DNA of 63,668 nt, counting the filler, from an uncultured Methanosarcinales archaeon (GTDB taxonomy: Archaea; Nanobdellota; Nanobdellia; Woesearchaeales; CAZKBD01), in the NCBI GenBank assembly GCA_964550945.1. It is 3 parts of 3 records of this genome, joined end to end, with 100 filler letters (N's around TTAATTAATTAA, not from the genome) between each part and the next. Parts side by side here need not be neighbours in the genome. Positions count along the whole stretch, not along the records: positions 22,427 to 44,188 come from CAZKBD010000023.1; 2 more parts are not named here. One strand, given 5' to 3'. Positions 3,617 through 57,208 of the stretch are shown here, piece after piece. The notes beneath the pieces are model-generated. The model was not told where the DNA came from and made no database searches. It saw only the letters and a program-made list of their open reading frames with translations. The translations under genes were made by a program, and so were the position numbers. The stretch's first letter is position 1, and each line of letters opens with the position of its first letter.

Positions 3617-4706
3617 TTATTTGAGTCCCTCTAGAAGTTCAGGATGTTTCTTGAGTACCGGATGTTTGAATATTGAAATAGGCAATTTTTTCATTGAAAG
3701 AATTGGTTCAATTATATCTTCTTGAAAGGTATGATTGAAAAGATGTTTGCATTTATACTCATCTTCAGCAAGATAAGGAAAATTGTACATTCTTTTGTAT
3801 ATATCTTTAACATCCTCCTTGAGTACATTACCATATGAAACCTGGATGAAAGGACACTGCATGACTTCTCCATAAGAGGTTACATACCATTTCTCTATTC
3901 CACCAGGACAGCCAGAGCTACCTCTGAAATTGAACATTGTATCAACCCTGATATGAGATTTTTTTATGAGTTTCGTATATTTTTCATACACTTCAGTGAC
4001 TTTATCTCCTTTTCTATCGCACATGCCTCCTGCTGCTGCAAGTGGATTGATGAGCAAGAATATTTTGTGTTTACTGCAAAAATCACTTAATCTTTCAACT
4101 TTTTCAAAGTCATCTTTTCCAAGCATAGTATTTATACAAACATTTAATCCAATGTCTTTTGCGTCTTTTATCCCTTGGATTATGCGGTCATAACTGCCTG
4201 GCATTTTGACTTCGCTATCGTGCTCTTCTCTTACAGGACTTCTTAAATGAAACATCAATCCGTTCATCCCAGCTTTTTTGTATTTCTCAAGCCGTTCTCT
4301 ATTTATCCTAAATCCATTTGTAGCCATAGTCACCATCACAGACTTATTCCATGATATATAATTGATTATTTCACAAAGTTCTTTGTCAGGCACCATTGTT
4401 GGTTCGCCACCAGTTAGATCAACATGGATAAGCCCAAGGTCAATTATGCTTGGCCAGAATTTTTTTATTTCAGAAAGAGGCATATATTGAAAATCCCTGC
4501 CAAGATATTTTGCAGAGCAGTATGGGCAATTAAAATTGCAGGTATAAGTGATTGCAAGTTCCATCGTGCGAAGAACCTTTTGCTTCAACAAGCATCTCTT
4601 AAAAATACCNNNNNNNNNNAGTTCGTTTGATATACTTATAGTGCAACAATTTCTGATGAAAAGTGCTTTTTTGCCTGCGTTTGTCAATATCAAGATATTT
4701 TTTCAT
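3617..4706 (-). CDS. Radical SAM protein with SPASM/twitch-like C-terminus (spans 10-N gap)
   Basis: CNFNCPYC, TGGEP, GCPGG..QCPF; likely ATG at 4706 (MKKYLDID), frame offset only across the N gap. Confidence 0.85.
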
Positions 4707-22326: not shown

Positions 22327-22426
22327 NNNNNNNNNNNNNNNNNNNNNNNNNNNNNNNNNNNNNNNNNNNNTTAATTAATTAANNNNNNNNNNNNNNNNNN
22401 NNNNNNNNNNNNNNNNNNNNNNNNNN
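22327..22426. other. Artificial contig linker
   Basis: N44-TTAATTAATTAA-N44; stops in all six frames. Confidence 0.97.
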
Positions 22427-27561: not shown

Positions 27562-27592
27562 ATGTCCAGTCCCCAACCGGGAAAGAATAAAA

Positions 27593-27740
27593 ATGTCAGA
27601 AATTTTCCACTAGTCTAGGGCTAGTGGCTGAAAGCCAATGTCCTTGGTGATGTGAAAAATTTCTGAGCATGCTCAAAAACCACTCCCTATCGAGGTGGCT
27701 TTAAACATGCCACCCATCTCTGATGGGTGGTTTTTGACAT
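27593..27740 (+). repeat. Structured intergenic element, copy 1 (MITE-like or ncRNA)
   Basis: ATGTCA..TGACAT ends, central GAGCATGCTC, multiple stems; homolog at 57008-57208. Confidence 0.85.
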
Positions 27741-39889: not shown

Positions 39890-41139
39890 AGCTTTCTCAA
39901 ACCCAAATCAGCTGCTTGAGTTAATACATCATAAGTCTGGGAAACAGCAGGGCAATATGCTAGCTCTAGATCAGAAAGCTGTTTTAAAGTGAAACCTGCG
40001 GTTATTGCTGCTGAAATGACATCAATCTTCTCTTTAACATTCTTGCCAATTGATTGTCCTCCTAAAATCTTTCCTGTTTTTTTGTCTGCAATTATCTTAA
40101 CAAATATATCTTCTGCGCCGCCAAACCATTCTGGTCTTGTTTTTGATCTGGCTTTTCCTTCAACAATCTCATAGCCATATTTTTTTGCAAAGAANNNNNN
40201 NNNNGAATTAAATCCAGTAGCCCCAATTTCAATATCGCCAATGACAGATATCAATGGCGCTAAAGTTCCTTTAAATTCTTCGTTACCGCCTGCCATGTTT
40301 ACTCCTGCTGTAGTCCCTTGCTTATAAGCTGTTGACGCAATCCATGCTGCAAATTGTTTTTTATTTATTAAGCTCTTGCTTTCAACACAATCACCTGCTG
40401 CGTAAACATCCTTAACATTAGTTTCCATCTTTTCATCAACAACAATCCCAAAATCCCCTGTTTTTATTCCTGTTCCTTTTATTAAATCAATATTCGGCTT
40501 TACACCAGTTGCTAAGATTGTTAAATCATTTTTGTTTATCTTCTCTAATCTCTTATCAAAGACCAGTTTGATGCCTTTCTTTTCCAGATATTCTTCCAAA
40601 ACCTTTGAGATATCCTCATCAATTGCCTTTGGAAAACAATGAGAAAGCATTTCAATAACTTCAACTTTAACGCCTTTTTTGGATAACGCAAATGCTGTCT
40701 CTAGGCCAATAGCGCCAGCACCAACAACTATCGCTTTTTTAGCAGTTTTTATCTTATCTTTTATTTTCTCTATTGATGCTATATCCTTTACAGTGAAAGC
40801 GTATTCCTTGTCCTCAATATCTGGAACAAAAGGGGACGAACCGGTTACAATTAGCAGTTTATCATAATTAATCTTTTTGTTATTAGCTATTACAATCTTA
40901 TTTTTCACATCAATATTTTCAGCTTTCCCTTTAATTTTGTTTATTCCTGCAATACTAACCGAATGCTTCAAATCATCTAGTTTTATCTTTCCTTCTAAAG
41001 CAAACGGCAAGCCGCAGGGATGCAGCAAGTCATAATCCTTTTCGTCAATTATAGTGATATCTGTGTCTCTGTTTGTTTTTTTAGCTGCTAAAGCAGCAGC
41101 AAATCCAGCTGCTCCTAACCCGATGATTACTAGCTTCAT
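39886..41139 (-). CDS. FAD-dependent NADH oxidase / CoA-disulfide reductase family protein
   Basis: GLGAAG, PCGLP, GAGAIGLE, YAAGDC, LAYCP; contains a 10-N gap. Confidence 0.88.
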   Translation of the reverse strand: MKLVIIGLGAAGFAAALAAKKTNRDTDITIIDEKDYDLLHPCGLPFALEGKIKLDDLKHSVSIAGINKIKGKAENIDVKNKIVIANNKKINYDKLLIVTGSSPFVPDIEDKEYAFTVKDIASIEKIKDKIKTAKKAIVVGAGAIGLETAFALSKKGVKVEVIEMLSHCFPKAIDEDISKVLEEYLEKKGIKLVFDKRLEKINKNDLTILATGVKPNIDLIKGTGIKTGDFGIVVDEKMETNVKDVYAAGDCVESKSLINKKQFAAWIASTAYKQGTTAGVNMAGGNEEFKGTLAPLISVIGDIEIGATGFNXXXXFFAKKYGYEIVEGKARSKTRPEWFGGAEDIFVKIIADKKTGKILGGQSIGKNVKEKIDVISAAITAGFTLKQLSDLELAYCPAVSQTYDVLTQAADLGLRKL

Positions 41140-44188: not shown

Positions 44189-44288
44189 NNNNNNNNNNNN
44201 NNNNNNNNNNNNNNNNNNNNNNNNNNNNNNNNTTAATTAATTAANNNNNNNNNNNNNNNNNNNNNNNNNNNNNNNNNNNNNNNNNNNN
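44189..44288. other. Artificial contig linker
   Basis: N44-TTAATTAATTAA-N44. Confidence 0.97.
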
Positions 44289-56538: not shown

Positions 56539-56648
56539 TTTATAAATGGTTTTAGATTAGTATTTATAAAGCTTTCTTTTGTTTTTTGTTTGGGATAAAC
56601 AAAAAAGTTTATATACTTCCAAAATGAGGGATGATAACTGGTGATATA

Positions 56649-57005
56649 ATGAAGATTATGATAACTTTTCTTGGGATATTGATCACTTTGGCTGGAATAC
56701 TCCCTTTTTTGAGCAGTATCGGGCTATTGCCTGCCTTTGTGCCGTCTTCGGGAGCTAAATATTCTATATTGGTTATGGTTATTGGAGTTATTGGCTTGGC
56801 CTATGGGATTATAAACAAGATGATAATGGGCTTGGAAAGGGTTGTTACAATAATCATTGCTGTATTAACGATTCTTGGAGGGGTTTTGCCTTTGATATCT
56901 TCAATGGTCCCTAGCTTTATCCCAACATCAGGGCCGTTTTATCCGGTGATAATAATTATTATAGGAATTATAGGGATTATTTATGGGATCATGGCGCTTG
57001 GGTAG
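56649..57005 (+). CDS. Small four-TM membrane protein with internal repeat
   Basis: Two similar halves (GILP..VPSSG.KY / GVLP..IPTSGPFY). Confidence 0.7.
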   Translation: MKIMITFLGILITLAGILPFLSSIGLLPAFVPSSGAKYSILVMVIGVIGLAYGIINKMIMGLERVVTIIIAVLTILGGVLPLISSMVPSFIPTSGPFYPVIIIIIGIIGIIYGIMALG

Positions 57006-57007
57006 AA

Positions 57008-57208
57008 ATGTCAGAAACTTTCCACTAGTCTAAGACTAGTGGCTGAAAGCCAATCTATTTTTGGATTGTGAAAAGTTTCTGAGCATGCTCAAAAACCATC
57101 CTAATATCAAGGTGGCTTCAAACATGCCACCCACGGAAACTAGCGTTTCCTAGCGCAGTAAATGACTTTGTCATTTATGCGCCATCTCTGATGGGTGGTT
57201 TTTGACAT
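57008..57208 (+). repeat. Structured intergenic element, copy 2, with 51-bp nested insert
   Basis: Homolog of 27593-27740; insert at 57134-57184. Confidence 0.85.

Follow-up and report, generated by a model that had tools for sequence, protein, structure and literature searches.

A dispersed multi-hairpin element of a Woesearchaeales genome is probably a non-autonomous relative of IS200/IS605 transposons

Introduction

What kind of sequence is the multi-hairpin element that precedes dnaK in an uncultured archaeon of the Woesearchaeales (GenBank assembly GCA_964550945.1), and why does a longer version of it recur elsewhere in the same genome? An earlier note on this DNA had described a pair of such elements, with sharp ends (ATGTCA..TGACAT) and a structure apparently under selection, and had offered three readings: a REP/REPIN-like single-stranded DNA element, a MITE or a structured RNA. 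The family was not recognized. Here, we analyze the window (the whole stretch of 63,668 nucleotides in which both elements were seen) together with the rest of the genome and related loci from other genomes. The window is made of three contigs, with N runs at 4610-4619, 22327-22426, 40195-40204 and 44189-44288, and neighborhoods across the joins are not real.

Results

The two copies in the window belong to a large family

Both sequences and every motif listed for them were found where they had been reported, on two different contigs (C23 and C28; Table 1). Copy 1 does lie before dnaK, 35 bases upstream, within a grpE-dnaK-dnaJ cluster. The ends of both copies are sharp as described but lie one base further in on each side (TGTCA...TGACA): the outer A is part of the target, and only 49 of 132 copies have the outer T. 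Copy 2 is indeed a homolog, and most of its extra length comes from a nested module of 51 bases that also occurs in copies on C16, C25 and C68 of this genome. The target of copy 2 overlaps the stop codon of the upstream gene. Further double-hairpin modules are nested in copies on C8, C45, C64, C68 and C161, some of them exactly in the core or the stems.

Table 1. Coordinates of the two copies and their parts, counted along the window
Feature	Position	Strand	Basis
Copy 1 (146 bp), flanked by a DUF3467 gene and dnaK	27594..27739	+	ends placed by family statistics and by empty sites seen for other copies
Target of copy 1 (host DNA): T, AAAA (predicted from guide TTTT), extra purine	27588..27593	+	sequence and guide rule
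Left guide of copy 1, TTTT, at foot of left hairpin	27603..27606	+	position by analogy with IS608 as described in PMC3201880
Left subterminal hairpin of copy 1	27607..27627	+	homologous to left ends of tnpA-bearing elements
Central core of copy 1	27660..27679	.	sequence, circular fold, pair counts, parent ends
Right guide of copy 1, CATG, predicting end motif TGAC	27706..27709	+	copy statistics and rule in parents
Right subterminal hairpin of copy 1, tail ending TGAC, terminal A	27710..27739	+	identity to tnpA element L211
Copy 2 of the element, 199 bp, just 3' of stop codon of ORF 56631-57005	57009..57207	+	
Target of copy 2: T, AGAA (predicted from guide CTTT), A	57003..57008	+	sequence and guide rule
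Left guide CTTT and left hairpin of copy 2	57018..57042	+	22/25 identical to L213
Central core of copy 2	57076..57095	.	
Nested 51-base double-hairpin module inside right hairpin of copy 2	57134..57184	+	comparison with copy 1 and fold; edges ±3 bases

The element is far from limited to a pair of copies. An nhmmer profile gave 80 hits in 60 loci on 46 contigs of this genome, against 0 for the reversed genome sequence. With up to 2 mismatches allowed, the 20-base central core alone gave 47 matches, of which 33 were parsed as complete elements. A search for copies across DPANN had been proposed, and the exact core is present in 44 of 401 genomes of the order, at 0 to 30 copies each and spread patchily across families (the count of 44/401 includes this genome and the unpublished genomes G131, G207 and G374). 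Among the matches listed, titled core-bearing records are mostly Woesearchaeota, Nanoarchaeia or Nanoarchaeota. A second large group of true copies, again among the matches listed, comes from records titled uncultured Methanosarcinales. One record titled Saccharibacteria (L030) holds a true copy that is truncated where its 1.7 kb contig ends. Five other non-DPANN matches (L007, L034, L064, L070 and L075) lack the arms and were rejected as chance matches to the core. In viral contigs, we found neither the core nor the tnpA of the parent elements described below.

The pool used for statistics, this genome plus 185 fetched loci, comprised 247 cores, 202 complete elements and, with shared flanks removed, 158 distinct sites. 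Flank counts use 132 copies, the remaining 26 of the 158 being of ambiguous orientation. Element length ranges from 49 to 311 bp, with a median of 142, and the contents are very variable, although every copy consists of two closed arms around the core. Twenty-seven of the 158 copies are no longer than 60 bp (14 of these are 54 bp); such short forms, among them those of 49-58 bp, lack the inner hairpins and have a looser target.

Copies are insertions without target duplication

Flanking sequence upstream of the element follows the consensus T-T-R-A-W-R, with A at -3 in 125/132 copies and A at -1 in 122/132, and the right flank has no consensus. Target duplications of 4-6 bases are seen in at most 2/132 copies, in agreement with the lack of a clean duplication in the original pair. 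The empty-site comparison that had been proposed was informative: 17 of 172 filled sites have an empty look-alike, 15 of them gapless at the junction (one is of low complexity, and several share one host repeat). No empty site was seen for copy 1. Orientation relative to neighboring genes is mixed (26, 21, 18 and 12 of 77). Collectively, the flank statistics and empty sites show the element to be a dispersed insertion that does not duplicate its target.

At least two further dispersed repeat families host copies (L011, L211, L251, L177, L197 and L060 are among the loci), and one site in one host repeat family is filled in four loci. Other host-repeat loci in this genome are on C49, C147 and C7, and on C4, C66, C76 and C149.

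Some copies lie inside ORFs, and in the four compared the insert is absent from this genome's homologues. All seven in-ORF copies have lengths that are multiples of three, a circular observation that carries no weight as evidence. In-frame copies (L079:1816-3222, L108, L086, L096 and, in this genome, C48 near 5167) lengthen gatA, gatE, ribosomal protein L3 and other proteins by 18-37 residues that start with MSE. The three genes named are in other genomes; gatA was identified by Pfam Amidase, and the other two are presumably gatE and ribosomal protein L3-like, having been named from sequence by eye. A related 51-base double hairpin with different feet sits in frame inside a tnpA gene, without duplication (L143:1454-1505). 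Palindromic elements of Rickettsia and Methanocaldococcus are tolerated in frame inside conserved proteins. The likeness to these is by description, and here just 7/158 copies are in ORFs.

Inner hairpins and right tail trace to tnpA-bearing elements

A hairpin of similar kind lies at the end of a broken tnpA in an element-rich genome. The relatives of this tnpA in metagenomes and genomes are tnpA-only IS200-type elements (L199-L239 and L281-L308), here called parents, which score above the cut-off for Y1_Tnp and have invariant HUH and Tyr residues. Positions 27706-27738 of copy 1 are identical at 30/33 to the right end of one of these (L211), and the guide plus left hairpin of both copies match another (L213) at 22/25. 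These identities show that the inner hairpins and the right tail come from tnpA-bearing IS200-type elements, as judged by sequence comparison. Parents and element have in common the left and right hairpins, the guides, the right tail and the guide code (see below). The parents differ in having a TnpA gene, in having neither outer stems nor core, and in ending right at the motif; the left spacer is 4-8 bases in parents and about 10 in the element. In two pairs of near-identical parents (L338/L339 and L282/L284), the base following the right motif is not the same, which indicates that parents end at the motif. Hairpins in some right arms of the element resemble those of another TnpA group, which shares 24% identity with the first.

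No parent-type tnpA was found in this genome, the assembly of which is 92% complete, and the genome has two other tnpA genes and a fragment. Parent tnpA is present in 2/44 element-bearing versus 20/357 other genomes (p = 1.0, from incomplete assemblies), and any Y1 transposase in 18/44 versus 114/357 (p = 0.24); these tallies include the unpublished genome G315. Given the incomplete assemblies and the other tnpA genes in this genome, supply by another TnpA, or supply in the past, is possible. A linked transposase, suggested previously as something to look for, did not turn up: there is no tnpA within the 185 element loci, many of which are short. Nor is there a sign of a dedicated partner gene, as the largest cluster among 1222 neighboring ORFs covered 4 loci. 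The TnpB family PF07282 was not found in this genome, and by eye we saw no lone arms enclosing an ORF in it.

This genome's two Y1 genes adjoin retroelement-like loci and are not flanked by the element. Both lie directly upstream of these loci (L001:1-1925 on C153 and L002:1-1683 on C146). By eye, the loci look like diversity-generating retroelements, with a gene that has a C-terminal repeat, a template copy rich in asparagine and the beginning of an ORF resembling a reverse transcriptase. A second tnpA group (L128, L130-L135, L137, L143-L145, L001 and L002) is nearly unchanged across several families of the order, L131 being 96% identical to this genome's copy. Its loci have a long structured leader, and the right end seems to overlap the stop codon.

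Guide bases predict the host flank

According to the descriptions in PMC3201880 and PMC5934647, IS608 and ISDra2 carry a four-base guide 5' of each subterminal hairpin, in which G1 pairs with C-3 and G2 with C-4, while a conserved A at -2 is unpaired. We asked how well the left guide of the element predicts its flank under this code. The match was 60/61 for G4 (permuted mean 29.8), 46/61 for G2 (28.3) and 34/61 for G1 (24.6); relatedness is not taken into account in these permutations, but every insertion acquires a new flank. In IS608, G4 pairs with C-1, which fits the data here. In this genome alone, G4 matches in 15/16 copies (8.3 permuted). When guide was compared with flank on either side as a control, the top z was 2.3 for the right flank and 40.6 for the left.

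The main left module cannot separate G2 from G4, because both change together, whereas the parents and a second left module do separate them. For the second module, matches were 15/17 for G4 (6.3) and 14/17 for G1 (8.5), with G2 uninformative; both its pattern and the spacer window of 4-8 bases were defined post hoc. In the parents (66 loci), the code holds on the left in 37/43 (permuted mean 12.9) and on the right in 51/53 (26.9). The left figure comes from an anchored hairpin finder; an unanchored one gave 12/43 (p = 0.054), starting one base early or mis-picking. By eye, four of the six parental left-code misses are mis-picked hairpins. The right guide CATG accompanies TGAC in 38/52 copies with a scored right hairpin. 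Both window copies fit the code (TTTT/AAAA, CTTT/AGAA and CATG/TGAC), and CTTT guides with AGAA upstream also occur in parents L286, L287 and L289. The shortest forms do not follow the code at that position. With this exception, the permutation tests show that left-guide bases predict the host flank by the IS608 code in the parents and in both left-end modules.

A compensatory difference between copies 1 and 2 had been reported in arm 1, T-A in one and C-G in the other. This is correct, and the pair is the first base of the left guide, so the substitution is compensated within the stem and at the same time goes with a different target.

Closed outer stems and an apparently shifted cut

Both window copies fold well, with z scores of -6.2 (RNA) and -6.6 (DNA) for copy 1 and -9.7 (RNA) for copy 2, and 0/200 shuffles were as good. 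Covariation was scored over 40 pairs in 28 diverse copies (<90% mutual identity) chosen from 45 of similar length. In this set, 95.9% of cells pair, a value reached by 0/500 shuffles (which ignore relatedness) and compared with 37-49% for slid controls. Two-sided changes occur in 14/40 pairs, again reached by 0/500 shuffles, which upholds the covariation proposed for the original pair. The stems listed in the earlier note cannot all form at once, however; several compete, and different folds are predicted. A check against Rfam, which it had also proposed, returned no family above gathering thresholds, with chance matches alone at E up to 1. On the top strand of the outer stems, G-T outnumbers A-C by 85 to 60 (p = 0.046).

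The right tail recurs in inverted orientation at the left end. Likewise, the core repeats the end-to-end (right-end/left-end) junction in inverted orientation and is two bases longer than it; in copy 1 the added bases are G 27667 and C 27672, which bulge. The core closes both outer stems and is absent from the parents examined. With each half closed by the added stems, an excised circle would be a dumbbell, and circular fold prediction gives a closed dumbbell for either window copy. In 132/132 copies, the base that follows the right motif and the central base of the core are complementary. In the lowest-energy folds of copies, the guides are buried.

Empty sites also bear on the position of the cut. 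A site was taken as informative if the base left of the element differs from the element's last base and the host sequence is known. There are four such sites (C16, L117, L014 and C161), and the host keeps the base left of the element in 2/2 cases at L117, 6/6 at L014 and 9/12 at C161. At C16, G is present in 3/4 empty hosts shown and A in none; a stricter pattern caught just two T-bearing hosts. Seven other candidate sites were uninformative, and none favored the register of the parents. Because the host retains the left base, each of the two cuts seems, in this small sample of four sites, to be displaced by one base in the 3' direction relative to the parents, which puts it at the foot of the stems. 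Cleavage immediately 3' of the guide-paired motif, a feature of IS200/IS605, is therefore apparently not what the element displays. A boundary model in which the element runs from A to C, used in the flank and guide counts, was rejected on the empty sites. Among the joints listed from contigs of 4 DNA runs, none skips copy 1, which is evidence neither way, and no excision or circle was seen in the assembled contigs searched.

Discussion

The inner hairpins match IS200 ends, the guide predicts the flank, and the target is not duplicated. On these grounds, we think it likely that the element is a non-autonomous IS200/IS605 derivative of the kind called PATEs, moving as single-stranded DNA by means of a Y1 HUH TnpA made elsewhere. 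It is mobile DNA and not an RNA gene. The earlier reading as a mobile single-stranded DNA element thus survives, while REP/REPIN and a DDE-type MITE do not, there is no indication of a functional RNA, and the family can be named as IS200/IS605-derived. A match to a described IS family had been named as telling against a new family; the match seen here is at the level of the kind.

PATEs were described from Haloquadratum walsbyi as having no transposase gene and near-end palindromes related to IS200/IS605 ends (PMC3119063), and PATE-like elements are also described from Geobacillus stearothermophilus (PMC10055086). Our element likewise has no transposase gene, is too short to encode one, and has near-terminal palindromes related to IS200/IS605. 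As far as those descriptions go, it also shares the absence of target duplication, a short target motif on one side (here the left), heterogeneous copies, core-deleted forms of about 52 bp and the nesting of elements in one another. PATEs are defined in PMC3119063 as without terminal inverted repeats, whereas the element, compared by description, has them (TGTCAGAAA / TTTTTGACA ends), so we regard it as a variant and not a plain PATE. Unlike PATEs as described, it has an internal inverted junction copy that closes both arms, an apparently shifted cut and a DPANN host. SMR-A of Haloquadratum, as described in PMC3119063, resembles it in size (about 110 bp), terminal inverted repeats, lack of target duplication and insertion into palindromes of other IS605-type elements. 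SMR ends are described there as unrelated to any transposon, and SMRs as having no known mobilizer; the ends of the element, compared by description, trace to IS200-type parents. With IS608 and ISDra2, as they are described, the element shares guides 5' of the hairpins that pair with the motif (shortest forms excepted), the conserved A left unpaired at -2, insertion 3' of the motif and a preference at the following base. It differs in having no tnpA or tnpB, in that the preferred following base stays left and not right, and in that its natural guides vary within one genome.

If the element is a PATE-like derivative, TnpA acting in trans would bind the inner hairpins on an exposed single strand and peel the top strand out as a circle. 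This circle would fold as a closed dumbbell, its junction paired with the core, and would be inserted 3' of the guide-matched motif plus one purine. Cleavage would take place at the foot of the outer stems, shifted 3' by one base compared with the parents. The structure would then be kept for the element's own movement and not for the host. The probable role of the outer stems is to keep the circle closed and protected and to determine the shifted position of the cut; as they also bury the guides, they may throttle activity as well. Several observations count against the PATE-like interpretation, namely the absence of parent tnpA from this genome's assembly, the lack of co-occurrence, the shifted register, the short forms that do not follow the code, and the buried guides.

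Some of these same observations would suit a different arrangement, in which the outer double-hairpin frame is a mobile unit of its own, moved by an altered or different enzyme (a variant TnpA, a nuclease resembling RAYT, or a recombinase that uses the folded single strand as integrases use attC) that cuts at the stem foot, and the IS200 ends are swappable passengers that steer it. The many copies of 60 bp or less point in this direction, as do end hairpins like those of two divergent TnpA groups on one frame, the shifted cut, the terminal pair closed in every copy counted with two bases extrahelical, and the lack of co-occurrence with parent tnpA. Yet the frame's right tail is the parent's right end, and no enzyme gene recurs beside the element. 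To our knowledge, guide-directed target choice is known only for Y1 TnpA. We consider this arrangement unlikely. Spread of a REP/REPIN/BIME-like repeat by a resident RAYT is less probable again: paired palindromes, tandem and nested arrays and in-frame insertions such as those described for REPs (PMC6006769) are all present, but the full element flanks 0/53 Y1 loci examined, so no RAYT gene flanked by repeats was found, and in place of a fixed terminal tetranucleotide tag of the GTAG type there is a guide that varies and matches the IS200 parents.

A structured non-coding RNA or cis-regulatory leader, for example of dnaK, would account for the strong folding, the covariation, the position of copy 1 and the slight G-T excess. 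We give it marginally less credence than the REP reading, because the roughly 60 loci are scattered, without fixed orientation, next to genes unrelated to one another, the host flank can be predicted from internal bases, and Rfam offers no match; the top-strand bias fits single-stranded DNA equally well. The imperfect terminal inverted repeats with TG/CA ends recall a classical MITE mobilized by a DDE transposase. Absence of target duplication, the one-sided target motif and guide covariation refute this reading, to which we attach almost no probability.

The kind to which the element belongs is already known, from PATEs (described in PMC3119063) and from guide-target covariation in natural elements (described in PMC10055086), and its closed outer stems and cut position are unusual for that kind. 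In the literature on Woesearchaeota/DPANN repeats, IS200, TnpA and small mobile repeats that we surveyed (mostly open-access, main texts), we found this family, the closed arms and the shifted cut undescribed.

These results give a name to a widespread Woesearchaeota-type repeat and tie it to a parent transposase group. Such hairpins need not be taken for riboswitches or RNA genes, and the odd 18-residue inserts in core proteins of these archaea are explained. The copies, natural and numerous, also confirm the DNA-guide code established for IS608. The closed arms and the one-base shift would be departures from peel-and-paste transposition and, if real, would be informative about how TnpA positions its cleavage and useful for the design of DNA-guided insertion tools. 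A more speculative idea, which we consider doubtful, is that the frame of about 50 bases is a minimal mobile chassis, excised as a covalently closed single-strand dumbbell, cut at the stem foot and accepting interchangeable guide-plus-hairpin modules from different IS200 groups. Were this so, the chassis would be served by several transposases or by some other enzyme, and would represent a naturally reprogrammable, nuclease-resistant, DNA-guided insertion element spreading among DPANN cells.
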